Source: a virus (lineage: Duplodnaviria > Caudoviricetes). Taken from it: DNA of 64,000 nucleotides. The stretch is from the IMG/VR virus record IMGVR_UViG_2706795703_000001, positions 8,140 to 72,139 of that record. The stretch is one strand, 5' to 3'. A model generated the notes under the pieces. The model worked only from the letters and a program-made list of their open reading frames with translations. It searched no databases and was not told the origin of the DNA. Of the stretch, positions 9,943-64,000 are shown one piece after another; the first letter of the stretch is position 1, and every line of letters begins with the position of its first letter. The position numbers and the translations under genes are program-made.

Positions 9943-10203
9943 TTAGGCGGCAGCTGCGGCCACCGCCTCGTTGACCAGGTCGTAGGTGCCATAGCCGTTG
10001 CTGTAGAGGCGGCGCACCTGGGACGGCAGCAGGGTCAGGCGGGCGGCGGCACCGAAGGCCACAGTGACGTCGTCGGTGGCGTGGACCTCGAGGATGGCGC
10101 GGGCCAGTCGGACCTCGTCGGTGCTGCTGCCCAGGTGGGCGGCGGCCTCGCGGATGCGACGGTCGAGGACGGCGGCGGCGAGGGTGCGGGTGGTGTGGGC
10201 CAT
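9943..10203 (-). CDS. Hypothetical protein (86 aa), antisense insertion in the virion operon
   Basis: SD AAGGAG, its own promoter cassette upstream and a terminator downstream. Confidence 0.75.
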   Translation of the reverse strand: MAHTTRTLAAAVLDRRIREAAAHLGSSTDEVRLARAILEVHATDDVTVAFGAAARLTLLPSQVRRLYSNGYGTYDLVNEAVAAAAA

Positions 10204-10224
10204 GGTGACTCCTTGTGCTGGGCG

Positions 10225-10283
10225 GCGGGTCGGTCCCGCTTGCTTGTGTCACCACACTAACCCGCCTAAGTCGGGTAAGTCAA
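10225..10283 (-). promoter_or_regulatory. Operator-promoter cassette 1 (TTGACT-N18-TAGTGT) with leader hairpin
   Basis: -35 at 10278-83, -10 at 10254-59, spacer palindrome CCCG-N7-CGGG, hairpin at 10225-39. Confidence 0.8.
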
Positions 10284-27114: not shown

Positions 27115-27768
27115 GTGACCACGCCCAGCGTTTGCGTAGCGGAGAACCTGGTCGTCGGTGACGACGGCAAGCTACGCCTGGCCCCGTGGTCGGTCCCGCG
27201 CAACGTCGTGGACATCCTGGCCCGCAGCGGCGCTGACACCACCAAGCTGCTGGAGACGTCGACGCTGCCCGGCCGTCTACTCATCGACGTGCCGCCGGAG
27301 GCCGTGCTGTGGACCAACACCACCCCGGTGGACCACATGGTGCGCATCGTGGTCACCCGGCGCTGGAAGCGGTGGATCACCAGCAACCCGAACGCGGTGC
27401 AGTTCCGTGACCGCTGGTCTACCGCCGTCACCCCGGCGGGCAACGACGCGGTGATGCCTGCGGTGCCGGTGGTGTCGGGCATCTTCAACAGCCAATGCGG
27501 CAGCGCCGGTGACCTGGGCAGCAACACCGTGGCCGAGCCCGTGCCGGGCAAGTTCTGGGGCTGGTGGGGCACCAACGCCAGCGAGGAGTGGATAGAGCCG
27601 GTGGCCCCTGGTGACACCCTGCGCGTGGCCTACCGCTGCTATGTCTGGACCCCGCCACCCTTCAGCGACAACGCGAACAAGAACGCCCCCGCCCACGAGG
27701 CCGAGGCGGGCTACACCCGCATCCAGCTAACGGCCTTCCCCAAGCAGGGAAAGCTGGTGACCGGATGA
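27115..27768 (+). CDS. Minor tail protein (217 aa), paralogue 1 of 3
   Basis: GTG 6 nt after TAAGCT; beta-rich sequence. Confidence 0.7.
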   Translation: MTTPSVCVAENLVVGDDGKLRLAPWSVPRNVVDILARSGADTTKLLETSTLPGRLLIDVPPEAVLWTNTTPVDHMVRIVVTRRWKRWITSNPNAVQFRDRWSTAVTPAGNDAVMPAVPVVSGIFNSQCGSAGDLGSNTVAEPVPGKFWGWWGTNASEEWIEPVAPGDTLRVAYRCYVWTPPPFSDNANKNAPAHEAEAGYTRIQLTAFPKQGKLVTG

Positions 27769-29143: not shown

Positions 29144-29506
29144 TTGCTGTACGAACCGCCCCCAGGGTTTGACGATTGCGAGGCTGACGCCGACGCAGCC
29201 CCGACGCCTGCCAGCTGGCCGTACCACGAACTGGAGGTCGAGGGGGTGGGCACGCTGCACGCCCGGCGACCACTGCCCAACGCCATCCCCAACCTAGCCG
29301 GGGCTGCGCGGGCCAAGATCAAGCCCCAGGCGCGCATCGACCACCTGGACCTGTTCGTGCAGAACCACCTGGCCGAGGGCGAGTTCGAGACGCTGCTGGC
29401 GCGCATGATGACCGAGGACGACATGCCGCCGGACGCCATGCTGCGGGTCAGCCGCGCGATTGCGACGGCGGGCACTGCCCGCCCTACACGGCGGTCATCT
29501 ACCTAG
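29144..29506 (+). CDS. Second tail assembly chaperone (G-like, 120 aa)
   Basis: Aligns by eye to the 12425 chaperone; ends ..ARPTRRSST; TTG start with SD GGGAG. Confidence 0.65.
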   Translation: MLYEPPPGFDDCEADADAAPTPASWPYHELEVEGVGTLHARRPLPNAIPNLAGAARAKIKPQARIDHLDLFVQNHLAEGEFETLLARMMTEDDMPPDAMLRVSRAIATAGTARPTRRSST

Positions 29507-31426: not shown

Positions 31427-31606
31427 CTCGCGGCTGTCGCGGTAGCGCAGCCAGGACCATATACCGATCAATCCGGCCCCGGCGGCGGCGGTCACACCGG
31501 GGTGCGGATTGACGGTGAAAAACGACACGGCGAGCAACAGCGTTCCAGTTCCACCCATGAGGGCGACAGTAACGGGTCGGCTGTCGCGGCGCGCGTGCCT
31601 GGTCAT
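31331..31606 (-). CDS. Small membrane protein (91 aa), overlapping the 3' end of the convergent tail gene
   Basis: ATG at a TAATG overlap with the upstream gene; two hydrophobic segments. Confidence 0.55.
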   Translation of the reverse strand: MTRHARRDSRPVTVALMGGTGTLLLAVSFFTVNPHPGVTAAAGAGLIGIWSWLRYRDSRELASVKVIQRRAEAPGAKKFLGPLHDHAHRAV

Positions 31607-31812
31607 TACCGGCCGCCCCACCAGCCACGGCCTGGGCGCTCGGCGTGCCAAGCGTCGATGGTCTCCTCTTTCCAGCCCTTGTGGCGGCCCACCATCACAT
31701 CATGCGGTGGCAGGTCGATGCCGGACAAGCTGCGCACCGACTTCATGCCCAGGCGCTTGGCCACGTCCTGGCGGGACAGGTACACCGGCACCTTGCGTTC
31801 GGTGGTGGTCAT
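31606..31812 (-). CDS. AlpA/excisionase-like HTH DNA-binding protein (68 aa)
   Basis: YLSRQDVAKRLGM...LPPHD...GWKEETIDAW pattern. Confidence 0.75.
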   Translation of the reverse strand: MTTTERKVPVYLSRQDVAKRLGMKSVRSLSGIDLPPHDVMVGRHKGWKEETIDAWHAERPGRGWWGGR

Positions 31813-31814
31813 GG

Positions 31815-32240
31815 CTACGCCGTCCTCTCCCGTGGTGTGTTCCCCGACATCGTAAGGGTTATCACCGGCGACTCGTCGTCATCAGCAACGATCACGGCGG
31901 CGCGTCCGGCCACCAGACGGTGCCACTCCTGCCCCGGGGCATTGCTGACAGCTACCACCAGCAGGCGGTTTGCCGTCTCCTCGGCTGCGGCGATGATCTT
32001 GGCCACGTCGTCATCGAAGGCGTCGGTGACGCCTTCTACCTTGGTCAGCAGCCCCGGCGGGCAGGCGTCCTGGCCGGACTCGATGCGCTGGTAGTCGCGG
32101 CGGGACTTGCCCAGCATGACGGCCATTTCGCGCTGGTTCAGGCCCACGTACATGCGGTGGGCGCGGATGATTTCGCCGAACCCGTGCTCGTAACCCTCGG
32201 GCCTGACCTCCCGGGCGGGCTGGTCTGCGGTGATGGTCAT
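31815..32240 (-). CDS. XRE-family HTH protein (141 aa)
   Basis: IIRAHRMYVGLNQREMAVMLGKSRRDYQRIESG; ATG 32240 with SD AAAGGA. Confidence 0.8.
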   Translation of the reverse strand: MTITADQPAREVRPEGYEHGFGEIIRAHRMYVGLNQREMAVMLGKSRRDYQRIESGQDACPPGLLTKVEGVTDAFDDDVAKIIAAAEETANRLLVVAVSNAPGQEWHRLVAGRAAVIVADDDESPVITLTMSGNTPRERTA

Positions 32241-32308
32241 TGTGTTCTGTCCTTTCGTGGTGGTGGCCCCGGCACCGAGGGGCGGTGCCGGGGCCATGGG
32301 CTGGCGGG

Positions 32309-32929
32309 TTACCAGCCCATCTTGTCGGCGCAGACGGGGCCGATGCCCCGGGCGCGGCTGTCGTCGTTGGTCAGCTGCCGACCGCACACCCCGCACTCGC
32401 CAATCTCGTGGCCGTAGCGGGCGCTGGCGACCTCGGCACCGGCGGCGGCGATGCGGGACAGGATGGCCCGTCCCTGCTTCATGCTCAGCTTCTGCTCGTC
32501 GCCGCCGATGACCTGCTTGACGAAGACGTACCCGGCCCAGCGGCCGGTCTCGGGGCGGTCCACCTTGTAAAACGCGGTGCCGTTGACCGCGTGGACCTGG
32601 GTGTCGATGGCGTATCGACCGGCGGGCACGGCCACCTTGGTGTCGGCGGCAGGGGCCTTGGCGCGGCCGGTGTAGCCCTCAGCCTTCAGGCGGTCGATGT
32701 TGGCCGACACGGTGCGCTGGCTGCCGTTGTTCTCCAGGTACATGTCGATGCTGACCTGGGCGGCCAGCATGTCCGCGCCGGACGCCTGGGCCTTCTCGGT
32801 CATCAGCGCGCGCAGGTAGTCGACGCTGGCCGGGCTGGCGGGCTTGATGTAGGCGGCCGGGTCACCGGCGGTCTGGACGGCCCCGTGCGCGTCGGCCTGG
32901 GCGCTGATGGTGTCAAACGGTGTTCCCAT
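32309..32929 (-). CDS. DUF6011-like zinc-finger protein (206 aa)
   Basis: C-terminal CGVCGRQLTNDDSRARGIGPVC; SD AGGAG. Confidence 0.75.
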   Translation of the reverse strand: MGTPFDTISAQADAHGAVQTAGDPAAYIKPASPASVDYLRALMTEKAQASGADMLAAQVSIDMYLENNGSQRTVSANIDRLKAEGYTGRAKAPAADTKVAVPAGRYAIDTQVHAVNGTAFYKVDRPETGRWAGYVFVKQVIGGDEQKLSMKQGRAILSRIAAAGAEVASARYGHEIGECGVCGRQLTNDDSRARGIGPVCADKMGW

Positions 32930-32947
32930 GGTGTGCTCCTAGTTGCG

Positions 32948-33009
32948 GCGGGTCAGTCCCGCGTGGCTGGTATGTGACCAGACTAGACCGACTTAGGCGG
33001 GTTAGTCAA
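32948..33009 (-). promoter_or_regulatory. Operator-promoter cassette 2 (TTGACT-N18-TAGTCT) with leader hairpin
   Basis: -35 at 33004-09, -10 at 32980-85, hairpin at 32948-62. Confidence 0.8.
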
Positions 33010-33034
33010 CACCGGCATTGATACGATCAGCCCC

Positions 33035-40023: not shown

Positions 40024-40080
40024 GTGCGGGTGCTTTCGTCTATGTGGTTGTGGTGCTGGTGTTTGTGTTGTGTGGTGTGC

Positions 40081-40157
40081 CGGTCGGCCGGGGTGACCTG
40101 GATGCAGCCCGGCCGACCGACTCCCACAAACTAACCCGACAGTGGCGGGTAAGTCAA
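40081..40157 (-). promoter_or_regulatory. Operator-promoter cassette 3 (TTGACT-N18-TAGTTT) with a 12-bp leader hairpin
   Basis: -35 at 40152-57, -10 at 40128-33; stem 40081-92 pairs with 40108-19. Confidence 0.8.
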
Positions 40158-49396: not shown

Positions 49397-49423
49397 GTGA
49401 GTGGTCCTTCCAGGTCAACCGTA

Positions 49424-49481
49424 GCGGGACTGTCCCGCTGGGGTGACTAAGGTTATAGCTTATTGACCGTTGCCCCGTCAA
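49424..49481 (-). promoter_or_regulatory. Promoter TTGACG-N18-TATAAC with the conserved leader hairpin but no spacer palindrome
   Basis: -35 at 49476-81, -10 at 49452-57, hairpin at 49424-38. Confidence 0.7.
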
Positions 49482-53834: not shown

Positions 53835-54068
53835 ATGGGCCTCGATGACCGCAACCCCGCCACCGTCCACCTGGCACGCCTGCTGGAGCCGAACCCGAAC
53901 TTGCCGGACCGGATGCACAACGTGGCCGACGTCGCGGCCTGTCACCGCGACAAGATGCTGGAGCTGCTGGGGGACGGGCCCGAGCTGACCGCCGGGCTGC
54001 GCAAGCTGCTGGAGGCCAAAGACTGCTTCGTGCGCCAGGCGCTGCTGGACGAGGTCGATGGGCAGTGA
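53835..54068 (+). CDS. Small helical protein, Acb2/Tad1-like candidate (77 aa)
   Basis: GPELTAGLRKLLEAKDCFVRQA; leaderless ATG 7 nt after TATCCT. Confidence 0.7.
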   Translation: MGLDDRNPATVHLARLLEPNPNLPDRMHNVADVAACHRDKMLELLGDGPELTAGLRKLLEAKDCFVRQALLDEVDGQ

Positions 54069-54304
54069 CGGCCGACGACCAGCTGGAGCCGGTGACCATA
54101 GTCGACAAGCGCGCCCAGCGTCGTGCCGACAAGGTGCTGACCGAGCACCTACGCAACGCCCAGCGCGACCAGCTGGCCGCCAACGTGCGCCAGCTGGCGG
54201 GCACCACCTGGTGGGCCGCCCAGTCCAGCCCGACCCCCGACGAGGTGCTGGCCAGCCGTGACGCCCTGGTCATGGAGGCCCGGATGCAAGGGCTGGACGT
54301 ATGA
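54065..54304 (+). CDS. Hypothetical protein (79 aa)
   Basis: GTGA and ATGA couplings. Confidence 0.65.
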   Translation: MTADDQLEPVTIVDKRAQRRADKVLTEHLRNAQRDQLAANVRQLAGTTWWAAQSSPTPDEVLASRDALVMEARMQGLDV

Positions 54305-54876
54305 CCGCTGACCCTGACACCGACGAGCCCGACTGCCGGGGCTGGGTGCCCGACTACCAGCTGGTGCCCGCGATCCTGGCGGGATCGGCCACCACCATGG
54401 CCGACCTGACCCCACCCGACCGCGCCTGGGCGGTGGCGGGGCTACTGCGCGAGGGCCACACCGCCGAGCAGATCAAGGATCGGATGGGGTGCAGCTTGCG
54501 GCTGGTGCGCACCGTGTCAGCCTGGGCGGCCACGGCGGTGTGCCAGCTGCTGCAAGCCGAAGCCGAGCACTTCGCGGACACCTACCGGATGCAGGACGTG
54601 GAGCTACGGCGGCTGACGGCCGACCTGGTCACCGCCAACGCCACCGCCGACCGCTACCAGCGCCAGCTGGCGCGGCTGCTGGACAGCTACCTGGTGGGCG
54701 AGTCGGGCCCCAGCTTCCCCAAGTGTGGACACCCGAAGACCAGGTACAACACCTATACCGCCCCGAAGACGGGGAAGACGTCGTGCCGGATGTGCCACTG
54801 TGACGCCCAGCGGGCCTATGAACAGCGCAAGGCGGCAGCGTCAGCACTGCCGCCTTCGTCGCCGGTGGGTCAGTAG
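54301..54876 (+). CDS. HTH / coiled-coil / zinc-ribbon protein (191 aa)
   Basis: GHTAEQIKDRMGCSLRLVRTV; CGH...NTY...CRMC. Confidence 0.7.
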   Translation: MTADPDTDEPDCRGWVPDYQLVPAILAGSATTMADLTPPDRAWAVAGLLREGHTAEQIKDRMGCSLRLVRTVSAWAATAVCQLLQAEAEHFADTYRMQDVELRRLTADLVTANATADRYQRQLARLLDSYLVGESGPSFPKCGHPKTRYNTYTAPKTGKTSCRMCHCDAQRAYEQRKAAASALPPSSPVGQ

Positions 54877-55127
54877 CCGTAGTCCTCGGCCGGGGCGTCG
54901 GCATCCTCGAAGAGGTCTTGGTCGTAGGCCCCGCCCAGGCGGCCGAAGTTGGCACCGTAGCGCTGGCCGCTGTCCTTCGTGACCACCTTGGCATCCTCGC
55001 CGTAGGTGTCGATGGCTTCCTGCACGGCGGCGAGCAGGTCGGCCAGGGTCATGTCGGTGCTGACCTGGTCGGCGGCGTATCCCTGGTTGTTGTCGGTGGC
55101 CATGATGACGGTGACGTTGCTGGACAT
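54870..55127 (-). CDS. Acidic hypothetical protein (85 aa)
   Basis: SD AGGAG after cassette 5. Confidence 0.75.
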   Translation of the reverse strand: MSSNVTVIMATDNNQGYAADQVSTDMTLADLLAAVQEAIDTYGEDAKVVTKDSGQRYGANFGRLGGAYDQDLFEDADAPAEDYGY

Positions 55128-55147
55128 GTGGGTCTCCTGACTGCTGG

Positions 55148-55208
55148 GGCGGGTCGGTCCCGCCGGGCTGGTGAAGACGAAGTTACCCGCCTATGTCGGG
55201 TAAGTCAA
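55148..55208 (-). promoter_or_regulatory. Operator-promoter cassette 5 (TTGACT-N17-TAACTT) with leader hairpin
   Basis: -35 at 55203-08, -10 at 55180-85, hairpin at 55148-64. Confidence 0.85.
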
Positions 55209-55226
55209 ACGGCGTAGTGTCGGCCC

Positions 55227-55547
55227 ATGGCCAAGACGAAGGCCCGCAAGGGCACTAGACGCGCCGGTGCGCTACGTGGCGGCACGCGAAAAATCGCTCG
55301 TTCCCGCAGGCCAGGCACCATCGCGCTGCACGCCAAGGCAGGCGGCATTGCCACCTTCGCCAAGGGTGGCGGGGGCGGCTACCGGGGCTTCAAATCGAAG
55401 AAACAGTGGCGCTGGGCCTGGGCGACGAAACAGCCGTGGGCGCGCAAGAAGTCCCATGAGACCGCCGGGGGACCGAAGGTGCGCTACCGCCGGTTACCGG
55501 CCAGCAAGCACAGCGGGCACAAGGGCACCAGACGCCCCAAGTCCTGA
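55227..55547 (+). CDS. Highly basic Arg/Lys-rich protein (106 aa)
   Basis: About 30% K+R with one acidic residue; leaderless ATG 6 nt after TAGTGT. Confidence 0.75.
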   Translation: MAKTKARKGTRRAGALRGGTRKIARSRRPGTIALHAKAGGIATFAKGGGGGYRGFKSKKQWRWAWATKQPWARKKSHETAGGPKVRYRRLPASKHSGHKGTRRPKS

Positions 55548-55564
55548 TAACCACCTGATAACCA
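55543..55564. repeat. Tandem 11-bp duplication CCTGATAACCA x2
   Basis: Read directly; contains ATAACC (reverse complement GGTTAT). Confidence 0.8.
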
Positions 55565-55566
55565 CG

Positions 55567-56049
55567 TCAACCGAACGCGCCCAGCGCGCTGGCCAGAAAC
55601 ACCAGCGACAGCAGCGCGGTCAGGGCGATATAGCCGATCTGCCGCCAGTCGGCTGCTTCGCGGGCCCGCTCGGTCACCACCGCGTCGTCGTCTTCCCACG
55701 GGGACACCCACAACGCCGGGGTGCCGACGCCCGGCCCCAGGCAGCCCCGGCACAAGAACGCCCCGTCGACGGTCCAGCGCATGTCGGCCCGGTACCGCGT
55801 GGTGTCGCAGCCCCGGCACCAGTCCGCGCGGTCATCCAGCAGGCTCTGGACACCGGGCTCCACCACGGGCTTGGCCGGTGGCGGGGCCACGTTGTTGGCC
55901 AGCGGCGTGAAGGCAAACCCGTCGGGTACTTGGCGCACGGTGCCGCCGGTGGGGCTGGCGTGCAGCTGGGCCACGGCATCGCCCAGCTTCTCGAACTGCG
56001 CCGCCTCCAGACCGAAGCCCTTGGCAGCCACCCGGGGTACTCGTCCCAT
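55567..56049 (-). CDS. Zinc-finger protein with C-terminal TM helix (160 aa)
   Basis: CRGC...CRGC; hydrophobic C-terminus. Confidence 0.65.
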   Translation of the reverse strand: MGRVPRVAAKGFGLEAAQFEKLGDAVAQLHASPTGGTVRQVPDGFAFTPLANNVAPPPAKPVVEPGVQSLLDDRADWCRGCDTTRYRADMRWTVDGAFLCRGCLGPGVGTPALWVSPWEDDDAVVTERAREAADWRQIGYIALTALLSLVFLASALGAFG

Positions 56050-56435
56050 TACCGCACCTCCAGGGGTACATCGCAGGTCTCAGCGTGGGCGGCCAGGTAG
56101 TGCGCCCCGCAGGCGGTGCAGTGGTCAGCGTCGTCGTAGGGGTCGGTGGCCGCCCGCAGCGCCGCGCTTATCCGCGCGCCCTGGCGGCAACTGCACCCGG
56201 CGCAGTGCGGGCCACGGATGTTGCTCCGGCGGTAGGTGCCGCCCTGGCTGCCAGGGACTAGCCGGTCGGCAATCACCTCGTCCTCGGTCACCAGCCGTCC
56301 GCACTCCCAGCAGGGCACTTTCGTGCCGTCGCCGCCGAACCCGGCCTCGGGGCTTACCAGCCACTTGCGCCGGGCGCGCCGGTCGTAGCTGCTGCCGCGC
56401 TCGTTGCGGTTGCTCCGACCGCAGATGCTGCTCAC
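56049..56435 (-). CDS. HNH-like protein with substituted catalytic residues (128 aa)
   Basis: CWEC...ADRLVPGSQGG...NI...CAGCS; GTG 56435. Confidence 0.7.
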   Translation of the reverse strand: MSSICGRSNRNERGSSYDRRARRKWLVSPEAGFGGDGTKVPCWECGRLVTEDEVIADRLVPGSQGGTYRRSNIRGPHCAGCSCRQGARISAALRAATDPYDDADHCTACGAHYLAAHAETCDVPLEVR

Positions 56436-56578
56436 TTGGTCACCACACTGGGCGGGTCGAATACCAGCCGCCAGCGGTCGCCCGTCCACAGCAGCACCCA
56501 CCAGTGCCGCAGGCGGTGCCGGTCGCCGTCGAACAGGCGCTCGACGTCGGTACGGCTGGGCAGCCCCGGCCCGGTCAC
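56432..56578 (-). CDS. Hypothetical protein (48 aa, Trp-rich)
   Basis: GTGA couplings at both ends. Confidence 0.55.
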   Translation of the reverse strand: MTGPGLPSRTDVERLFDGDRHRLRHWWVLLWTGDRWRLVFDPPSVVTK

Positions 56579-56784
56579 CCGTCGCCTTCCAGGTCGAACT
56601 CCTCGGCGTAGGCGGGCAGAAACTCGCTGGCCGGGCGGGGTAGGCCGACGGCCAGACTGGCGTCGAACCGGGCCAGCACGTCGGTCAGGTAGGCGGCGTG
56701 GGCGGGGCTGGGCGCGTGCTCGATGCGGTGGGTGATCTTGCGCCGCTGCCGGGCCACGTTCATGTCCGGCTGTACCGACTTCAC
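56575..56784 (-). CDS. Hypothetical protein (69 aa)
   Basis: GTGA couplings; codon bias. Confidence 0.65.
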   Translation of the reverse strand: MKSVQPDMNVARQRRKITHRIEHAPSPAHAAYLTDVLARFDASLAVGLPRPASEFLPAYAEEFDLEGDG

Positions 56785-57002
56785 GGTTTACCCCGCCCAC
56801 GGTGGGCATCCTGGCCCCTGAGCTGGCGGCAGCTGAGCGCCACGTGCCGCCGGGCCAGGCCGGTGCGCGGGTCGATGATCGGGCGGTGTTGCGTGTTGGT
56901 GGTCCTGCCGCAGTATTCGCACCTGTCGAACGTGCCTGCCATCGGCTGGCCGCTGCCGGGGCACCATGGCGACTTCTGGGCAGCACCCTTGGTCCTGGTC
57001 AT
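56781..57002 (-). CDS. CPGS-type zinc-binding protein (73 aa)
   Basis: CPGS...CEYC...RRH; ATGA coupling. Confidence 0.6.
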   Translation of the reverse strand: MTRTKGAAQKSPWCPGSGQPMAGTFDRCEYCGRTTNTQHRPIIDPRTGLARRHVALSCRQLRGQDAHRGRGKP

Positions 57003-57487
57003 TTCGTCCGCACCACCGTGGTCACGGTCGCGCCGGGCTGCACCTGGTCGGCCCAGCTGTCCCCGACCTCCATCAGCACCCCCGCACCGTCGTGGACGAC
57101 GAACCGGCCGTCGTAGGTGACAGCGGTACGCACGGGCATGACCAGCGGCCGGTCCACCGTGGTCTCGGCCAGGGTCAGGTGGTCGGTGTGGCAGGCCCGC
57201 CACGGGGCCCACCACGGCCGGGCGCCCCAGGCGGCCACCAGCGCCACCATGACGGTGCCCGGTGCCACTTCTGTGGCCGGGTCCATGACGGCGGGCTGGG
57301 TGGCCAGCACGTGGGCCTGGCGCACGTCCAGGCGGTGCTTAATGAGCACGTTGACGACCAGGGCCAGGCAGCCACCGATGACGGCGCTGCGCAGGTCCAT
57401 GACCGCTCCCAGGACGGTGGTGGCCAGCAGCACCCCAATGGTGCTGCCGACCAGGGTGGTGACCACAATGCGGCTCAGCGGTGCCAT
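56999..57487 (-). CDS. Membrane protein (162 aa)
   Basis: Two N-terminal TM helices. Confidence 0.65.
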   Translation of the reverse strand: MAPLSRIVVTTLVGSTIGVLLATTVLGAVMDLRSAVIGGCLALVVNVLIKHRLDVRQAHVLATQPAVMDPATEVAPGTVMVALVAAWGARPWWAPWRACHTDHLTLAETTVDRPLVMPVRTAVTYDGRFVVHDGAGVLMEVGDSWADQVQPGATVTTVVRTK

Positions 57488-57624
57488 GGCTCGGCCCCCG
57501 TGCCGGTGCTGATGTTGTGGTCAAAGCACCAGCCATAGCGGTGGTGGCAGCCCGGCCCGCACGGCAGCAGGCCCACGGCGCGCATCACCTCGGCCAGCTC
57601 GGCGTATGTCATGTTGGCATCCAT
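57475..57624 (-). CDS. Hypothetical protein (49 aa)
   Basis: TGATG coupling; Cys/His-rich. Confidence 0.5.
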   Translation of the reverse strand: MDANMTYAELAEVMRAVGLLPCGPGCHHRYGWCFDHNISTGTGAEPWHR

Positions 57625-58028
57625 CACTTGCCCTCCAGCTTCTGCCGCAGCGCGGCCAGGTCGGCGTCGTCCAGGGGCGGCACCACCGGATCCAAGATCA
57701 GCGGCAGCTCCACATCGTGGGTGTTGCACCAGACCGTGACCGGCCCCGGCCCGCCGTAGGTGAACGTCAGGCGGCAGTCCAGCTGGGCGTGGACCCCGAC
57801 CTCGGGGTTCATGTTGGGCAGCCAGCCATTGACCAGCCGCACCTCGGCCTCCTTGGGCTGCTGAGTGCTGTAGTTGGCCCAGTCGTCAGCGCCGGGGCGG
57901 TTGTTGGACTTGCGGGTCGGCGGCTGCTCGGCGGCGGTGGCAATGCGCTCCAGCGCCGCCACCGCGCGCTTGGCCAGGTCAATGGCGTCACGGGTGGGGC
58001 CGGGCAGCATCGAGGCGATGTTAACCAT
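57624..58028 (-). CDS. Hypothetical protein (134 aa)
   Basis: Codon bias; SD-like GAAGGGA. Confidence 0.65.
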   Translation of the reverse strand: MVNIASMLPGPTRDAIDLAKRAVAALERIATAAEQPPTRKSNNRPGADDWANYSTQQPKEAEVRLVNGWLPNMNPEVGVHAQLDCRLTFTYGGPGPVTVWCNTHDVELPLILDPVVPPLDDADLAALRQKLEGK

Positions 58029-58284
58029 GGGTAGGTCGTCCCTTCGTGGTCAGTGCTAGACCTGCGCGGCGCAGGTCGGCAATGGTGTTCTTCAATGCTC
58101 GGTGGTCGCTGGGTGTCGACGGCATGGTGGTCACCAGCTTGCCGTCGACGTACACCCGCAGGTGCTGGTTGCGGCTGTGTTGAACGTCGCCGCCGACCGC
58201 GCGAATGGCGTCGACCAGGGCCTTGACGTCGGCGCTGCATTGGCCAGGTCGGTGTCGGCCGGTGCCTGCTACGGGCAATCCCAT
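58021..58284 (-). CDS. HicA-like toxin (87 aa)
   Basis: LVDAIRAVGGDVQHSRNQHLRVY...VTTMPSTPSDHRALKNTIADLRRAG; SD AAGGAG. Confidence 0.65.
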   Translation of the reverse strand: MGLPVAGTGRHRPGQCSADVKALVDAIRAVGGDVQHSRNQHLRVYVDGKLVTTMPSTPSDHRALKNTIADLRRAGLALTTKGRPTHG

Positions 58285-58342
58285 GGTGGTCTCCTTGGTG
58301 GTTGTGGCGGGGCCGGTCACCCGACCCCGCCGGGGTGGTTGG

Positions 58343-58618
58343 TTACTCGTTGACCTCGCCCACCCAGGCCACCGCGCGCACGGCCTCGGCGGCGCTGGCC
58401 CCGGTGCCCGGGGTGGTCTCGATGATGACGATGCGCTCGGTACGACCGTTGTGGCGGTAGGTACCGCGCAGCGTGCCGTCGAACTGGAGGTCGTCCAGGG
58501 TGATGGTGCGGTGCAGCATGGTGGCCACCTGAAGGGCGTGGCCGATGGTGACCGACGGGTCGGTGGTCTCGACGTCGGTCTGGGTGCCACGGCTGGTGAT
58601 GATGCTGAAGGTGGCCAT
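58343..58618 (-). CDS. Hypothetical protein (91 aa)
   Basis: SD AGGAG after cassette 6. Confidence 0.75.
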   Translation of the reverse strand: MATFSIITSRGTQTDVETTDPSVTIGHALQVATMLHRTITLDDLQFDGTLRGTYRHNGRTERIVIIETTPGTGASAAEAVRAVAWVGEVNE

Positions 58619-58638
58619 GTCGGGCTCCTGTCTGCTGG

Positions 58639-58719
58639 GGCGGGTCGGTCCCGCCGGGCTGGTGACATGAAACTACCCCGACATAGGCGGGTTAGTCAAC
58701 TACTCCAAGCAGGCAATTT
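58639..58719 (-). promoter_or_regulatory. Operator-promoter cassette 6 (TTGACT-N18-TAGTTT) with leader hairpin and upstream AAATTGCCTG
   Basis: -35 at 58694-99, -10 at 58670-75, hairpin at 58639-55, upstream element at 58710-19. Confidence 0.85.
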
Positions 58720-58851
58720 GGCGTGGTGTCGTCGCACCTTGCCGTTGGCCTTGATAGCGAAGTGCCCGCCGCAGGCGGGACAGTAGGCGTGACCGCGAAA
58801 GGTGCGGGCCGGGGCCTGGTCAGACCCCGGGCACCGCACCATGTCAGTCAT
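58696..58851 (-). CDS. CPGS-type zinc-binding protein (51 aa), not in the ORF track
   Basis: Translated by hand: MTDMVRCPGSDQAPARTFRGHAYCPACGGHFAIKANGKVRRHHAKLPAWSS. Confidence 0.6.
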   Translation of the reverse strand: MTDMVRCPGSDQAPARTFRGHAYCPACGGHFAIKANGKVRRHHAKLPAWSS

Positions 58852-59302
58852 CGACCGCCACGCCGGGCACGCTGTCGGGCAGCAGGTAGTCCAGCACCAC
58901 CGGCGGCCGGGTGACCACGCGGTGGTCGGGCACCAGACCGGTCAGGCTGGGCCGGTACCAGCCACCACAGCCCGCGCACTGCACGAACAGCTGGCGGGCA
59001 GGGCCTGACACCGTGACGTCGTCGGTGTCGCGCGGGCGGGTCCGGCTGCCTGCACACCGCTGGTCGGCGGGGATGACCAGGTGATCGGGCAGCAGCGCGT
59101 TCAGCTGGGCGGGGCCGTTGGTCACCGTCGGAGCCTGGTCTGGCCGTGACGCCGCCCAGGCGGCGGGCAGAAACCCGCCGCTGGACAGGAAGCCGTGCAG
59201 TCCCAGCACCAGCTCGCACAGCCGGTGGATGTCGTCGTGGTATTCCGACTGGTCGGTGCGGGCGATGTCCAGCATTTCGGCCAGGGCGGCGTCGGGATCC
59301 AT
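58844..59302 (-). CDS. Hypothetical protein with C-terminal CAGS zinc module (152 aa)
   Basis: MDPDAALAEM N-terminus; CAGS...CAGC...PDH. Confidence 0.7.
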   Translation of the reverse strand: MDPDAALAEMLDIARTDQSEYHDDIHRLCELVLGLHGFLSSGGFLPAAWAASRPDQAPTVTNGPAQLNALLPDHLVIPADQRCAGSRTRPRDTDDVTVSGPARQLFVQCAGCGGWYRPSLTGLVPDHRVVTRPPVVLDYLLPDSVPGVAVDD

Positions 59303-59895
59303 CAGTAGGTGTCCCTGTCCCGCAGCGCGGCGATGATGAATCCCCGCCCCGGCTGGTCAAACGGGCTGGGGCCGGTGCCCACGCGCGGCACCTCCGCGCG
59401 CACCAGCGGGTCCACGACGCCGCCGGGGCTGTAGGTGCCTGCCACCCGGCCGTAGCTGCCCATGCGCTCGGCCACCGGCTCCTCCTCGGCCGGGTCGGGC
59501 CCGATGCGCTTGAGGCCGACGACCACGTGCAGGCTGGGCCAATTGGCCTCACCGATGAACTGGAGCAACCCCGGCCAGTTCAGCCGGTCGGTGTTCTGGC
59601 CGGTCACCGTCCAGCGGGTGCTCTGGCCGACGCGCCAGCCCACGGCGGCGTAGGCGTACTCCCGCCCGGCCTGGTACTTGGTGAAGGTCACCGCGACGGA
59701 CCCGGCATCGCCCAGATCGGGCTGCTTGGGCTTGCGCTCCTCGCGGCGGCGCAGCTCCTCGGCGGCCACCAGCCGGTCGATGCGCGCGGCCTCCTCGAGC
59801 ATGGCGGCGGCCTGGTTGCGCAGGTGGATGGCGTTGCCCAGGGTGGGCGTCGGGTCAGCCGCTACGGCCTTCTCAGCGTCGGTGTCGTTGGACAT
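59302..59895 (-). CDS. Hypothetical protein (197 aa)
   Basis: SD AAGGAG; TGATG coupling downstream. Confidence 0.75.
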   Translation of the reverse strand: MSNDTDAEKAVAADPTPTLGNAIHLRNQAAAMLEEAARIDRLVAAEELRRREERKPKQPDLGDAGSVAVTFTKYQAGREYAYAAVGWRVGQSTRWTVTGQNTDRLNWPGLLQFIGEANWPSLHVVVGLKRIGPDPAEEEPVAERMGSYGRVAGTYSPGGVVDPLVRAEVPRVGTGPSPFDQPGRGFIIAALRDRDTY

Positions 59896-59924
59896 GGGTG
59901 GCTCCTTCTTGGTTGTGGTGGGGA

Positions 59925-60155
59925 CTACGGGGCTTCGACGTCGTCAGCCGGGCCGGAGCCGTAGCTGCTGGGGTGCTTGGCGGTGGCGCAGCGCGCGTTC
60001 TTGGCGGCCATGCCGATGCCGTGCTTGGCGTTCACGAACGCGGGGTTCATGCACGCTTGGTCATAGACCGGATAGGTGCCGGTCTCGGCGCTGGCGGTCG
60101 CGGCACCGAACAGGGCCAGCCCTGCGGTCAGTGCGGCGGCGATCAGGTACTTCAT
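59925..60155 (-). CDS. Small secreted protein (76 aa)
   Basis: Signal peptide MKYLIAAALTAGLALFGAATASA; two Cys; SD AGGAGG. Confidence 0.7.
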   Translation of the reverse strand: MKYLIAAALTAGLALFGAATASAETGTYPVYDQACMNPAFVNAKHGIGMAAKNARCATAKHPSSYGSGPADDVEAP

Positions 60156-60195
60156 GGTGGTTCCTCCTGTGGTTGTGGTTGTGGTTGGTCGTGCG

Positions 60196-60266
60196 CTCCA
60201 GGGGCGGGAATCGAACCCGCGAGGTTGGCTCGTCAGCCGTGGCGACTCCATCGCGCCAGCCCTGGA
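60196..60266 (-). ncRNA. tRNA-like element (71 nt) with normal acceptor, D and T arms but a shrunken anticodon arm
   Basis: Acceptor TCCAGGG/CCCTGGA; D stem GGCG/CGCC with GG in the loop; T arm GCGGG-TTCGATT-CCCGC; third arm GGCT-GACG-AGCC; no encoded CCA. Confidence 0.7.
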
Positions 60267-60270
60267 AGGT

Positions 60271-60307
60271 GGTGCCAGGCCAGTGGTCAGTTCACCGGCC
60301 TGGCACC
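60271..60307 (-). other. 15-bp RNA hairpin between the DUF932 stop and the tRNA-like element
   Basis: GGTGCCAGGCCGGTG-AACTGAC-CACTGGCCTGGCACC with one G-U pair; no U-tract. Confidence 0.7.
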
Positions 60308-60313
60308 GGTCTA

Positions 60314-61363
60314 CTACACCGGCATCAGGGCGGTAAACGCCCGTGCCTTCATGTCGGCCACGTCCACCGACGTCAGCGTGCGCTGGGCCCGCCGGATCGC
60401 CGCCTCCTCGTCGTCGTCCACCTTGGCCGCCAGCGGGGCCTTGTGGTCCAGGTACTCGGTCATGGCGTTGTACACCCCGAAGGCGGTGCCCTTGAAGGGC
60501 GCGACGGTGGCGGCGGTGTCGTACAGGCTGGCCACCGCGCGGGCCTTGGCCTTGCGCCCGTCGGCCTGCTTCTGAGTGGTCGACCCCTCGACGTTCCAGA
60601 TGTCCTCCAGCACGTCCAGCACCTCGATGGACCCCATTTCGCGGGCAATCAGCCGCTCGCACTGTTCCACGAAGGTGTCGCGGTAGGCGAAGGTGACGCC
60701 CAGCAGCTGGCGCACTTCGGCCAGGCGCTTGGTGGGGTCACCGGTGTGGCGCAGGCTGACCGACGACCGCGCCGCGTTCTCTGCCATCCGCTGGGTGTTG
60801 GCGCAGACGATGCGCACGGGGCTGATCAACGCCCGCAACGGGTACTCGCCGGTGTGGTTGTTGAGCAGGCAGATGTACAGGTCGGTGATGTCCAGCTCAC
60901 CGGTCACCGGGCTGCGAAACTCCATGTGACCCGGCAAGCGCATGGTCACGAAGGTGTCGCGGCCACCGCGCAGCGCCCCGATGGTTTCGATGTGCGCCCC
61001 GCCCTCGTCCACCAGCGACGACAGCATCGGCGTGGTCTCCTCGTTGCTGAAGGGCACCCAGCGGTTGCCGACCACGCCCAGCGCCTCGGGCTGGTGGTTG
61101 ATGGGATTGTCGCGCAGCACCACGTGGCGGTCGGGCACCGCCAGGGCGTACTGCTCGCCGCCGTCGGTGGTGTACTTGGCCACCAGCGGCTGCTTGCGGA
61201 CGTTCCAGCCGCGCATGTGGGCGGCGTCGAGGGCCTCGTCCACGGTCATCAGGTGACCGACGGGGGTGCCCAGCTTGTGCCAGGCGTCGACGCGCCCGTT
61301 GCGGTCCACGCGGCTGTCGGCGTAGCTGGCCTGGCCGTCGGTGATGTCGATTTCGTGCGCCAT
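60314..61363 (-). CDS. DUF932 / TIGR03299-like phage-plasmid protein (349 aa)
   Basis: AWHKLG, LGVVGNRW.P..N, ETIGALRGGR, NNHTG...PVRIVCANT, NAMTEYLDH; ATG 61363 with SD AGGAGG. Confidence 0.85.
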   Translation of the reverse strand: MAHEIDITDGQASYADSRVDRNGRVDAWHKLGTPVGHLMTVDEALDAAHMRGWNVRKQPLVAKYTTDGGEQYALAVPDRHVVLRDNPINHQPEALGVVGNRWVPFSNEETTPMLSSLVDEGGAHIETIGALRGGRDTFVTMRLPGHMEFRSPVTGELDITDLYICLLNNHTGEYPLRALISPVRIVCANTQRMAENAARSSVSLRHTGDPTKRLAEVRQLLGVTFAYRDTFVEQCERLIAREMGSIEVLDVLEDIWNVEGSTTQKQADGRKAKARAVASLYDTAATVAPFKGTAFGVYNAMTEYLDHKAPLAAKVDDDEEAAIRRAQRTLTSVDVADMKARAFTALMPV

Positions 61364-61428
61364 GGTGATCCTCCTTGATCGTTGGTTGTGGTTGGTTGCG
61401 CGTTGGCCAGCCGCGCCCCTGGTCGGCC

Positions 61429-61758
61429 CTAGCGGACCAGCGCGCTGTCGGTGACGGTGTAGCCGTCGGGCAGCAGGCCCTCCAGGCGCTCGGCCACGTC
61501 CAGCGGCTGGACGTCGCCGGGCACCGTGATGGTCACGGTGACCGACTTGGTGGTGGCCAGGGTGGCGGTGACCACGGGCCCGTAGGTGGGCACCCAGTTC
61601 CCGGTGCGTACCAGCCCTGCCTCGCCCACGGCGGTGTAGGCGTCGGACTTGTCGGCCGCCGACCGCAGGCGGGTAATGGGCCCGTCTGCGGCCTGCACCC
61701 ACACGTTGCCGGTCACGGGGTTGAAGTACGCGGCGGCAGGGTAGGTAATGGCGGCCAT
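61429..61758 (-). CDS. Hypothetical protein (109 aa)
   Basis: SD AGGAG after cassette 7. Confidence 0.75.
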   Translation of the reverse strand: MAAITYPAAAYFNPVTGNVWVQAADGPITRLRSAADKSDAYTAVGEAGLVRTGNWVPTYGPVVTATLATTKSVTVTITVPGDVQPLDVAERLEGLLPDGYTVTDSALVR

Positions 61759-61777
61759 GGTGGCTCCTATCTGTTGG

Positions 61778-61858
61778 GGCGGGGCGGTCCCGCCGGGCTG
61801 ACAGGTATGAAGTTACCCGACATATGCGGGCAAGTCAAACGGTACGACCAGGCAATTT
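61778..61858 (-). promoter_or_regulatory. Operator-promoter cassette 7 (TTGACT-N17-TAACTT) with leader hairpin and upstream AAATTGCCTG
   Basis: -35 at 61833-38, -10 at 61810-15, hairpin at 61778-94, upstream element at 61849-58. Confidence 0.85.
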
Positions 61859-62006
61859 AGGTCAACATCAGGATCATTATGCACATCAGCGGGGCCAAGG
61901 CGACGACAGCCGCCGCCTTCTCGCCCCGGCTGTCGCGGTCAGCGACGTGCAGCCCGATGCAGCCGGTCAGGCTGATGAACGCCAGCACCAGCACCGTGGC
62001 GTTCAC
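61857..62006 (-). CDS. Small 2-TM membrane protein (49 aa), not in the ORF track
   Basis: Hand translation MNATVLVLAFISLTGCIGLHVADRDSRGEKAAAVVALAPLMCIMILMLT; GTGA coupling. Confidence 0.6.
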   Translation of the reverse strand: MNATVLVLAFISLTGCIGLHVADRDSRGEKAAAVVALAPLMCIMILMLT

Positions 62007-62431
62007 GGGCGGAACCACGTTTCCATCTGGGCGGGCGTCGGGGTGCCCGTCGGGTCCGGTGCGGGCCAGCTGGCCTCGATGCCGATGGCGGTGTCGCCCA
62101 GCGGCACGATCTTTCCGTCGGCGTCCAGGCGGGGGTGGTCGGCGTTCGGATCGCAGACGTCACAGCACCACCCATGCCAGCCAGGATCGCCGCAGACCCG
62201 GCACGGCAGGGTAGCCAGTACCTGGTCCAGCGTCAACGGCGTGGGGCTGTCGACCATGGCGGCAAACAGGCCGCCGTCGGTCTCGCGGAACACCTTGTCG
62301 CGGCGCTCTGCGCGGGTCTCACGCGCCAGCTGGGCGGCCCAGCGGACATGGGCGGTGTCGGCGGCCCGGCGGTTGCGTCCGGCGGCCTTGCGACCAAACC
62401 AGCCGCAGGCGGGGCAGTAGATAGCGTGCAT
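62003..62431 (-). CDS. Cys-rich hypothetical protein (142 aa)
   Basis: CPAC...CRVC...CCDVC; coupled to the upstream stop. Confidence 0.65.
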   Translation of the reverse strand: MHAIYCPACGWFGRKAAGRNRRAADTAHVRWAAQLARETRAERRDKVFRETDGGLFAAMVDSPTPLTLDQVLATLPCRVCGDPGWHGWCCDVCDPNADHPRLDADGKIVPLGDTAIGIEASWPAPDPTGTPTPAQMETWFRP

Positions 62432-62652
62432 CACGACGCCACCCGACGCGCTGCCCAGTAGGCAGCGTTCTCGCCCAGCTCGAAGTCCACAATGGCGCTG
62501 GCCAGGGCCCAGTCGGCGGCCTCGGCGTCCAGGGTGTTCTCCAGGGTGCTGGTGATGCCCAGACCCACGGGGCAAGCGGTGTCGTGGTCGGTGACGTAGC
62601 CGCCGCAGCTGTCGCAGGTGGGCGGCTCGGTGACGTCGGCGGGGTCAAACAT
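62431..62652 (-). CDS. Hypothetical protein (73 aa)
   Basis: SD AGGAG; CDSC...H..C motif. Confidence 0.7.
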   Translation of the reverse strand: MFDPADVTEPPTCDSCGGYVTDHDTACPVGLGITSTLENTLDAEAADWALASAIVDFELGENAAYWAARRVAS

Positions 62653-62657
62653 GGTGG

Positions 62658-62864
62658 TCAGCTCCTGGTCTGGTAGTGGGCGGCAATCTGGGCGGTCAGG
62701 GCCTTGATGTGCGGGCCCAGCAGGCTGGCGGCGTACTGGTCCCCGCTGGCCTCCAGCGTGGCCTTGGCCGTAGCCAGGGTCTCGCGGGCCTTCTGGGCCT
62801 GGGCCACCGCGCTGCGGCTGGTGACGGGCTTGCGGGTGTCGCGCACCCGGCTGGCGGTAATCAC
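62658..62864 (-). CDS. Hypothetical protein (68 aa)
   Basis: SD AAGGAG before GTG. Confidence 0.7.
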   Translation of the reverse strand: MITASRVRDTRKPVTSRSAVAQAQKARETLATAKATLEASGDQYAASLLGPHIKALTAQIAAHYQTRS

Positions 62865-62876
62865 GGTCTGGTCTCC

Positions 62877-63014
62877 TTACTCGGCCGCGTCGAAGGCGGC
62901 GAAGAGGTCGTCAAGGGTATGGATGCCGTGGGCGGCGAGGTTGGCCGCAACGGCGGCGCGGTCGCGGGCGTCGGCAACGCGGGCGTTGTGCTGGGCGATG
63001 GTGTTGTCGACCAT
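62877..63014 (-). CDS. Hypothetical protein (45 aa), not in the ORF track
   Basis: SD AAGGAG after cassette 8; MVDNTIAQHNARVADARDRAAVAANLAAHGIHTLDDLFAAFDAAE. Confidence 0.7.
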   Translation of the reverse strand: MVDNTIAQHNARVADARDRAAVAANLAAHGIHTLDDLFAAFDAAE

Positions 63015-63033
63015 GGTGGGCTCCTTGTGCTGG

Positions 63034-63114
63034 GGCGGGGCTGTCCCGCCGGGCTGGTGAAGACGAAGTTACCCGCCTATGTCGGGTAAGTCAAGCGCTA
63101 GGACCAGGCAATTT
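63034..63114 (-). promoter_or_regulatory. Operator-promoter cassette 8 (TTGACT-N17-TAACTT) with leader hairpin and upstream AAATTGCCTG
   Basis: -35 at 63089-94, -10 at 63066-71, hairpin at 63034-50, upstream element at 63105-14. Confidence 0.85.
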
Positions 63115-63137
63115 ACCCGGCCCTAGCGCCTGACCGG

Positions 63138-63896
63138 CTACGCGCGGGGCGTGGGCAGCCCGGCCGGGTTCTCCGGCGTCGGCACGTACTGGAGCCAGCG
63201 CCGGATGGTCTCGCGGCCGGTCGCCTCGTCCATGCCCACCGGAAGCTCCAGCTTGCCGCTGTCCAGCGCGGCGTAGATGAGCGCGTGGACCGACTCGCCC
63301 AGCAGCTGGCGGTGGGTGGCGGGCCGACCCTTGGCGTTCATCCGCTGGGCCTGGGCGTCGGCCTTGGCCGCCTGGGCGGCGTCGATGGCGGCCAGCTCGC
63401 GCTCGATGGCAGCGGTGCGCTCGGCCTCGGTCGGCACGTTGCCCTCGCGGGGCGCGCTGCCCACCACCGACTTGCGCGACTTCTTCGGCGCGGGCTCGGT
63501 CAGGAAGTCCAGGCCCTTGGCAATGGCCGGGGCCAGTTCCTCGGTGACCGGCGCGGCCTTGGCGGGCTTGGCACCCTTGGCCAGGATCAGGGCGTCGATG
63601 GCGGCCTCGGGCCAGCCCTTATCGGCGGGGAAGTCACCGACGTGGGCGGTGCCCTTCACGGCGGTCGGGACGGCCTCGACCACGGTGGACTCGTAGCCCT
63701 CGCGGGCGAAGTACTCCCCGACCTTGCCGCTGCGCGCCTTCTCGGCGGCCTGCGGGGACTTGTGCCAGCTGTACGGGCCCCAGGTCTCCCCGTCGCTGCC
63801 GCTGGTCATCAGCACGTGGGTGTAGGGCATCGTCGGGCTGGTTCGCGTGAAGGTCTGCCCGTTGGGGGCGGTGGCGGTGAAGGTGATGCTGGCCAT
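63138..63896 (-). CDS. Hypothetical protein (252 aa)
   Basis: SD AGGAGG after cassette 9. Confidence 0.75.
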   Translation of the reverse strand: MASITFTATAPNGQTFTRTSPTMPYTHVLMTSGSDGETWGPYSWHKSPQAAEKARSGKVGEYFAREGYESTVVEAVPTAVKGTAHVGDFPADKGWPEAAIDALILAKGAKPAKAAPVTEELAPAIAKGLDFLTEPAPKKSRKSVVGSAPREGNVPTEAERTAAIERELAAIDAAQAAKADAQAQRMNAKGRPATHRQLLGESVHALIYAALDSGKLELPVGMDEATGRETIRRWLQYVPTPENPAGLPTPRA

Positions 63897-63917
63897 GGTG
63901 GTCCTCCTGGTTACGGT

Positions 63918-63975
63918 GGCGGGTCTGTCCCGCCGTGGTGAAAGCGAAGTTACCCGCCTATGTCGGGTAAGTCAA
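63918..63975 (-). promoter_or_regulatory. Operator-promoter cassette 9 (TTGACT-N17-TAACTT) with leader hairpin
   Basis: -35 at 63970-75, -10 at 63947-52, hairpin at 63918-34. Confidence 0.85.
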
Positions 63976-64000
63976 CTCGTCAGGTGATACCCTGCCCACC

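Follow-up and report, generated by a model that had tools for sequence, protein, structure and literature searches.

The focal cassette and its hairpin family

Positions refer throughout to the window, the whole 64,000-nucleotide stretch of phage DNA that was analysed, which covers bases 8140–72139 of a 72,139-bp virus record. The nearest relatives of this phage are B4 mycobacteriophages, among them Cooper, Nigel, Stinger and Prince, with about 80% nucleotide identity, so it belongs to Cluster B, the ICTV subfamily Bclasvirinae. At the focal locus, a promoter, an operator lying in its spacer, a hairpin and an SD sequence with its start codon follow one another on the minus strand (Table 1), with 15 nt separating the -10 from the hairpin. 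The gene that they serve has no homologue in ten relatives. Within its leader, the focal hairpin has a predicted pair probability of 1.00.

Table 1. Positions in the window of the focal cassette, the hairpin copies and a comparison leader
Feature	Positions	Strand	Details
Focal promoter	55180–55208	-	-35 TTGACT (55203–55208), 17-nt spacer, -10 TAACTT (55180–55185); read directly from the sequence
Focal operator	55183–55203	-	21-bp palindrome TTACCCG-N7-CGGGTAA; fills the promoter spacer
Focal hairpin	55148–55164	-	6-bp stem GGCGGG/CCCGCC; loop ACCGA (sense strand)
SD and start codon	55125–55138	-	SD AGGAG (55134–55138), ATG (55125–55127); serve the 85-codon orphan gene 54870–55127
Inserted unit	54877–55226	-	Cassette and orphan gene, between two plus-strand genes
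Hairpin copy	10224–10240	-	Loop ACCGA; outer pair A.C; 5' of DUF7185 gene 9943–10203
Hairpin copy	32947–32963	-	Loop ACUGA; heads the DUF6011/XRE-HTH/68-aa excisionase-like operon
Hairpin copy	49423–49439	-	Loop ACAGU; outer pair A-U; no operator in the promoter spacer
Hairpin copy	58639–58655	-	Loop ACCGA; 5' of orphan gene 58343–58618
Hairpin copy	61778–61794	-	Loop ACCGC; 5' of gene 61429–61758
Hairpin copy	63034–63050	-	Loop ACAGC; 5' of a 45-codon orphan gene
Hairpin copy	63918–63934	-	Loop ACAGA; 5' of gene 63138–63896
Comparison operator-promoter with a different leader	40040–40135	-	Longer, 19-pair hairpin; before a helicase-like gene

The pattern GCGGG-N5-CCCGC occurs ten times in the window, against an expectation of 1.08 ± 1.11 from 100 dinucleotide-preserving shuffles, none of which reached ten. 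Eight of these matches form one family, read on the minus strand as GCGGG-ACNGN-CCCGC, with GCGGG starting at 10225, 32948, 49424, 55149, 58640, 61779, 63035 and 63919. Each follows a SigA-type promoter (a TTGAC-type -35 and a TANNNT -10) of leftward genes and lies 20–28 nt 5' of an ATG or GTG that has an SD. The enrichment, the context and the conserved loop led us to reject a chance GC palindrome or a terminator. The remaining two, at 27706 and 29468, fall within coding sequence with loops of another kind and were not counted as family members. The second of them (29468–29482, plus strand) sits in the tail-assembly-chaperone gene, directly 5' of CCCTAC. UncleHowie, Acadian, Reprobate and BirdsNest keep it at the equivalent place in the gene, their loops differing by changes of the synonymous type.

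The original prediction had listed eight such copies, always between the -10 and the SD and oriented with transcription. All eight were found where it had put them, the last five of its coordinates including an extra outer G; the minus-strand loops are exactly those it gave, and every window copy (8/8) has the claimed placement. The orientation also holds beyond the window: all window copies are on one strand, while two more copies, at genome positions 2292 (loop ACCGA) and 5849 (ACCGT), are on the plus strand before plus-strand genes, and eight plus-strand copies in relatives carry their asymmetric loops in the sense orientation. One copy had been said to follow a promoter with no operator, as is the case at 49424 (TTGACG-18-TATAAC), where an operator-like palindrome sits just upstream of the -35.

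Taken as a unit, the cassette is about 90 bp long, consists of the -35, a palindromic operator in the spacer, the -10, the hairpin and the SD, and occurs about ten times per genome; of these parts the hairpin is the best conserved. Two classes of operator fill the -35/-10 spacer in Cluster B. The class TTACCCG-N7-CGGGTAA, placed after TTGAC.., is found in B1, B4, B5 and Birdsnestvirus, while the class ACAATACC...GGTATTGT is found in B2 and B3. A divergent XRE-HTH protein (31815–32396; 36–60% identity to its homologues) is a candidate operator binder.

Conservation of the hairpin across Cluster B

The ten complete relatives that we compared are Cooper, Bane1 and Prince (B4), Reprobate and Acadian (B5), BirdsNest and Zenteno07 (Birdsnestvirus), UncleHowie (B1), LizLemon (B2) and Philly (B3), whose portal-region proteins are 48–84% identical to those of the window. 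Every one of them (10/10) holds 6–13 hairpin matches, against 0–4 for a reversed-pattern control. Almost all of these matches stand in an early-promoter context, with the consensus G-GCGGG-AYNGN-CCCGC-C, and the hairpin is constant across subclusters although promoters and operators differ. Conversely, few early promoters, in this phage or in any of the ten relatives, lack the hairpin behind them. For example, the copy at 32947–32963 has an orthologue in all ten relatives, and in the 11-phage alignment of its leader (window 32908–33032) the hairpin accounts for 14 of the 27 invariant columns; loop changes there are confined to positions 2, 3 and 5, with A1 and G4 constant throughout, and the operators differ.

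In a scan of IMG/VR for the 17-mer, multi-copy carriers were found only among Cluster B-like contigs, the remaining hits being single chance matches or unrelated GC hairpins. Rfam returned no family at E <= 1 for window 54000–64000.

Flanks and preferred loops are homogenised within each subcluster (ACGGA is preferred in B3, ACAGC/ACCGC in B4 and ACCGA in B5), which indicates concerted evolution of the cassettes. Concerted evolution does not, however, explain the stem and the A1, Y2 and G4 that different subclusters have in common.

Some hairpins of the relatives lack a promoter. At genome coordinates 65029 in Cooper, 63679 in Bane1, 65671 in Prince, 69883 in Zenteno07 and 70139 in BirdsNest, all on the minus strand, an intercistronic hairpin stands between a stop codon, which it directly follows, and an SD. 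Its stem is longer and different, while its loops (AAGGC, ACCGU) fit the same A-N-N-G-N family. Similar repeated cassettes also occur in unrelated phages, on six IMG/VR metagenome contigs with GC contents of 0.47–0.64; their design is a TTGAC-type promoter, a hairpin GGGGCGGG-GCAAU-CCCGCCCC, a U-rich run, an SD and a start codon, in 2–3 copies within a few kb.

Compensatory changes in the stem and asymmetry of the loop

We scanned the 11 genomes, with no constraint on stem or loop sequence, for any 5-bp stem with a 5-nt loop near a -35-like word, TANNNT and an SD with a start codon. Of the 82 hairpins recovered, 78 have the stem GCGGG/CCCGC, and the other four are Watson–Crick compensatory variants: GCCGG/CCGGC in Zenteno07 and BirdsNest, and CCGGG/CCCGG and TCGGG/CCCGA in Philly, where a second CCGGG/CCCGG locus is also present. 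A copy in Reprobate has lost one nucleotide and now pairs in another register, GGCGG/CCGCC around a 6-nt loop. A single-sided stem mismatch was seen just once.

In an alignment of 79 copies, 98.9% of the cells pair, three of the six pairs have changed on both sides, and none of 500 shuffles reaches the covariation score. The outer pair, which was not used in the selection, is G-C in 66 copies, A-U in nine and something else in four (Fisher p = 3e-10, for sequences that are related). The independent compensatory events are few, about 4–6, and paralogous cassettes share ancestry. Covariation across relatives was a check that the original prediction had itself named, and compensatory stem changes are what it brought out. 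The loop shows a different kind of constancy, with A1 in 82 of 82 hairpins, Y2 in 79, G4 in 80 and T5 in only eight. Since A1 has no mirroring T5, the hairpin is not a symmetric dimer site. We conclude that the hairpin is a folded, strand-specific element whose pairing is under selection.

These observations bear on the idea that the element works as double-stranded DNA, either as a second operator or roadblock at about +5 to +21 or as a recombination linker, which we consider improbable. Such a site would be well served by the perfect 6-5-6 palindrome, whose half-sites are separated by one helical turn and whose centre lies near +13, and we counted that centre against an RNA reading. Classical operators, lacO1 among them, also lie near +13. 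The hairpin-headed operon encodes universal DNA-binding proteins (the 68-aa excisionase-like protein, 57–91% identical), Cluster A stoperators, which are mentioned in PMC3203893, show that orientation alone is no proof of RNA function, and the cassettes coincide with mosaic junctions, while the PeSL stem-loops of other phages have been proposed as recombination targets (PMC2839356). Against these points, double compensatory changes outnumber single half-site changes (about 4–5 loci against one), which fits base pairing, whereas independent half-sites would produce the opposite. The centre of the element is asymmetric, as the counts for A1 and T5 show, the 1-nt deletion variant keeps its pairing while altering the half-site spacing, and the distance to the SD and start codon is kept even where the promoter is 27–33 nt away or absent.

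There are no G.U variants among the main-hairpin copies, so pairing in RNA and pairing in single-stranded DNA are not formally distinguishable, while the place of the hairpin in a predicted transcribed leader makes RNA the natural reading. Most likely the hairpin is transcribed and read by sequence, its transcription being predicted from the promoter geometry.

Structure of the leaders and possible stabilisation in cis

In the modelled leaders (n = 85), the mean pair probability of the hairpin is 0.94, with a fold of -11 kcal/mol that leaves the SD open. If transcription starts at the eighth nucleotide after the -10, the predicted 5' tail before GCGGG is 4–10 nt, or one fewer before the 6-bp stem; it is 8–9 nt in this phage and 4–6 nt in B1, B2 and B3. 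At its other side the hairpin ends 1–15 nt before the SD and 13–40 nt before the start codon.

Such leaders invite comparison with the 5' stabilisers of E. coli ompA (hp1), B. subtilis ermC and the T7 phi10 leader, which likewise have a stable 5'-proximal hairpin upstream of a strong SD. Hairpins of this type act by structure alone, are not conserved in sequence and tolerate few unpaired 5' bases. The Cluster B hairpin differs in that its sequence and loop are fixed and in that the predicted 8–9-nt tail in this phage exceeds the few that are tolerated.

A purely cis-acting 5' stem-loop would shield the mRNA from 5'-end-dependent decay by RNase E/J and keep the SD unpaired; its uniformity would come from concerted evolution together with a narrow optimum in which the 5' arm is rich in purines, the 3' arm in pyrimidines, and a single C fixes the register. 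We regard this as unlikely to be the whole answer, although a good deal agrees with it. The predicted hairpins are 5'-proximal, above all where the tail is 4–6 nt, the fold is stable with an open SD, and flanks and loop preferences are homogenised within subclusters. Another leader of the same phage (40040–40135) uses a different 5' hairpin, the relatives have promoterless intercistronic hairpin-SD arrangements, and unrelated low-GC phage contigs show analogous cassettes of promoter, GC hairpin and SD. Moreover, the principle is known for ompA and ermC, where 5' structures stabilise mRNA, and for obstacles to RNase E scanning (PMC7148126).

What speaks against a role in cis only is the degree of constancy. 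A1, Y2, G4 and the three inner pairs are fixed across subclusters though promoters, operators and proteins have diverged, the last to about 50% identity. The comparison leader at 40040–40135, in which a long CA-rich tract fills the space between hairpin and start codon, shows how a hairpin kept for structure behaves: among four B4-type phages with about 80% identical DNA it has three compensatory pairs and two G.U changes. That hairpin drifts freely while the main hairpin does not, and the invariance of the latter therefore exceeds what structure needs.

Insertion of the focal cassette and mosaic junctions

The focal unit lies between a 191-aa gene (54301–54876) and a basic-protein gene (55227–55547), both on the plus strand and immediate neighbours of each other in Cooper, Bane1, UncleHowie, Acadian and Reprobate. 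Prince shares the cassette at the same site (54877–55226) but carries an unrelated 58-codon gene behind it, and its nucleotide homology resumes exactly at the start codon (55125). For Cooper and Bane1, homology resumes just past the -35, at 55211. Thus the focal cassette was inserted there, and the basic protein adjoins the hairpin only by accident.

The short sequence GGCGTAGTGTCGGCCCATG before the basic-protein gene is a remnant of the ancestral stop-codon/start junction and not a leaderless promoter. TAGTGT had been considered as a leaderless -10 of that gene and was rejected, being a remnant of the stop-codon context of the upstream gene.

A similar boundary is seen at 58640, where the cassette is conserved while its downstream gene is not, and homology breaks at the adjoining start codon, at about 58600. 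Among the first genes after the ten cassettes, five have no homologue in any of the ten relatives. These results indicate that the cassette marks mosaic-exchange junctions and often carries orphan genes.

The boxB analogy and the search for a binding partner

The original prediction had likened the element to lambda nut boxB. In a lambda-style system, an arginine-rich phage protein, such as the product of the 55227 gene, would bind the nascent hairpin and make the polymerase ignore terminators; we consider this very improbable for Cluster B. The geometry fits, as in lambda and P22 nut sites with N, a 5–6-bp stem with a 5-nt loop in an early leader, and a very basic 106-aa protein is encoded beside the focal copy. 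The loop, however, is A-Y-N-G-N and not G-N-R-N-A, and the orthologous alignment has no conserved boxA-like block 5' of the hairpin, where only -2 (A) and -1 (G) are conserved. The sites are also more numerous than in lambda or P22, about ten per genome, and several head single-gene units. The early operons showed no excess of terminators: terminator-like sites number six against 4.9 expected, three of the six being the operators themselves, with the reservation that mycobacterial terminators are poorly predicted. At 55148 the promoter drives one 85-codon gene that converges on plus-strand genes, so antitermination would be purposeless there and would carry the polymerase into a plus-strand operon in the antisense direction.

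The basic protein fares no better as a partner. It has clear homologues in B1, B4 and B5, that is in six of the ten relatives, all of which carry the hairpin; LizLemon (B2) and Zenteno07 have only weak matches of 28–31%, and no match was found in Philly (B3) or BirdsNest. In most relatives no cassette separates its gene from the plus-strand gene upstream, which it follows directly. We therefore rejected it as the hairpin partner, its homologues being patchy and its neighbourhood due to cassette insertion, and no N-like protein is common to all carriers. With the wrong loop class, no boxA, single-gene operons and a basic protein that is not universal, the proposal of antitermination is not upheld. 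The broader claim of a protein-binding RNA element survives in part: the element is folded and strand-specific, and its invariance fits a specific partner, while the nut/boxB analogy does not extend beyond the 5-bp/5-nt geometry. The original prediction had also suggested protection of mRNA from a HicA-like toxin, but the open reading frame concerned (58021–58284, minus strand) has no Pfam match at E <= 0.05, which leaves this idea without annotation support.

Searches with Pfam, PHROGs, NCBIfam, PDB sequences and the ESM Atlas recognised no RNA-binding fold among the proteins common to the ten relatives. What all ten have in common among small proteins is a winged-helix protein resembling excisionases, one of the XRE-HTH type and a DUF6011 zinc ribbon, besides several with no assigned function. 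The excisionase-like protein (31606–31812, minus strand; present in 10/10 relatives) is the best-conserved small non-structural protein of Cluster B. A CsrA-like reading of the loop as ANGGA was rejected, as only the loops ACGGA and AUGGA, found in about a quarter of the copies, would satisfy it, and mycobacteria are not known to have CsrA.

A proposed role in early gene expression

On the evidence of sequence comparison, we take the hairpin to be a real regulatory tag of early promoters; its exact job, which may be mRNA protection, translation control or protein docking, we infer. The best explanation, to which we give close to an even chance, is that it is a 5'-leader stem-loop of SigA-made early mRNAs that is partly structural and partly a docking site, and that it defines a post-transcriptional early regulon. 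The host SigA RNA polymerase would make the early mRNAs, in which the hairpin begins about 4–10 nt after the predicted start. It would give each of them a stable structure near the 5' end, beside the SD, and so insulate the ribosome-binding site. It would also serve as the docking site of one conserved trans-acting factor, of host or phage origin, and the docked factor may govern the stability or the translation of all early mRNAs jointly.

Docking by one factor is probable since the three inner pairs and A1, Y2 and G4 show no drift. The operators co-vary with subcluster while the hairpin does not, and the reader would therefore be a host component or a very conserved phage protein.

A stronger form of this explanation, which we consider possible but would not call probable, treats the hairpin as an RNA "address tag", with one conserved protein reading A1, Y2, G4 and the GGG:CCC stem on every early mRNA. 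Such a protein might switch the early programme post-transcriptionally, by shutting off translation at a set time, by shielding the RNA from decay induced by infection or, less likely, through modification of the polymerase.

Relation to known elements

A close parallel to the cassette is offered by the PeSL (promoter-early stem-loop) cassettes of the T4-type phages RB49 and phi1 (Arbiol et al. 2010, PMC2839356). Both are units of about 100 bp in which an early promoter for a host sigma factor is combined with a G/C stem-loop and an SD, and both recur many times in a plastic early region, preferentially before orphan genes and at insertion or replacement sites, which in the present phage include the junctions at 55125 and about 58600. 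PeSL stem-loops, however, lie mostly within or upstream of the promoter, terminate upstream transcription and vary in sequence, whereas the Cluster B hairpin stands downstream of the -10, is predicted to be transcribed and is invariant across the subfamily, and its cassette adds a palindromic operator. The position after the -10 and the lack of a U-tract argue against a PeSL-like terminator or attenuator role.

The SAS and ESAS elements of Cluster K mycobacteriophages are likewise short, oriented repeats that occur throughout their cluster and precede the start codons of genes with non-structural products; binding by a factor of the host or the phage has been proposed for them (Pope et al. 2011, PMC3203893). 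SAS is 13 bp long and asymmetric, overlaps the SD and lies 3–7 bp from the start codon, while the inverted repeats of ESAS have no compensatory support and differ by subcluster (PMC3203893). In contrast, the Cluster B hairpin is separate from the SD, has a compensatory stem, occurs together with promoters and does not differ between subclusters. Neither is it a 13-bp GGGATAGGAGCCC-like SAS, having a different sequence and a larger distance to the start codon.

The stoperators of Cluster A share with the hairpin a high copy number, an orientation with transcription and a location in leaders and intergenic gaps. Each stoperator is an asymmetric stretch of 13–14 bp that the immunity repressor recognises as double-stranded DNA and that has no capacity to pair, while the Cluster B element has palindromic arms with compensatory variation.

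A description of this hairpin was not found in the searchable full-text literature, though a mention in closed literature is possible, and a B1 preprint that reports many strong promoters at the right end does not mention it. This agrees with the original prediction, which knew of no such system in mycobacteriophages. The kind of element is thus known from PeSL, SAS/ESAS and the 5' stabilisers, while this hairpin, invariant in sequence throughout the subfamily and with a conserved pentaloop, appears to be an undescribed variant.

Implications for Cluster B phages

Few groups of sequenced mycobacteriophages are larger than Cluster B (493 Mycobacterium phage records were matched when a portal-region protein was searched), and the gene regulation of this cluster is essentially uncharacterised. 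If the address-tag reading is true, these phages would have a second, RNA-level layer of control above their DNA operators; comparable RNA-level control of mycobacteriophage early genes was not found in the literature searched. The cassette itself, with a strong SigA promoter, an operator, a structured leader and an SD, is a ready-made mycobacterial expression module, and it provides a concrete model for the movement of orphan genes between actinophage genomes. That 17 nt remain the same at some ten promoters in each genome, in every subcluster tested, while promoters, operators and proteins diverge is a strong sign of an unrecognised control point in Cluster B.
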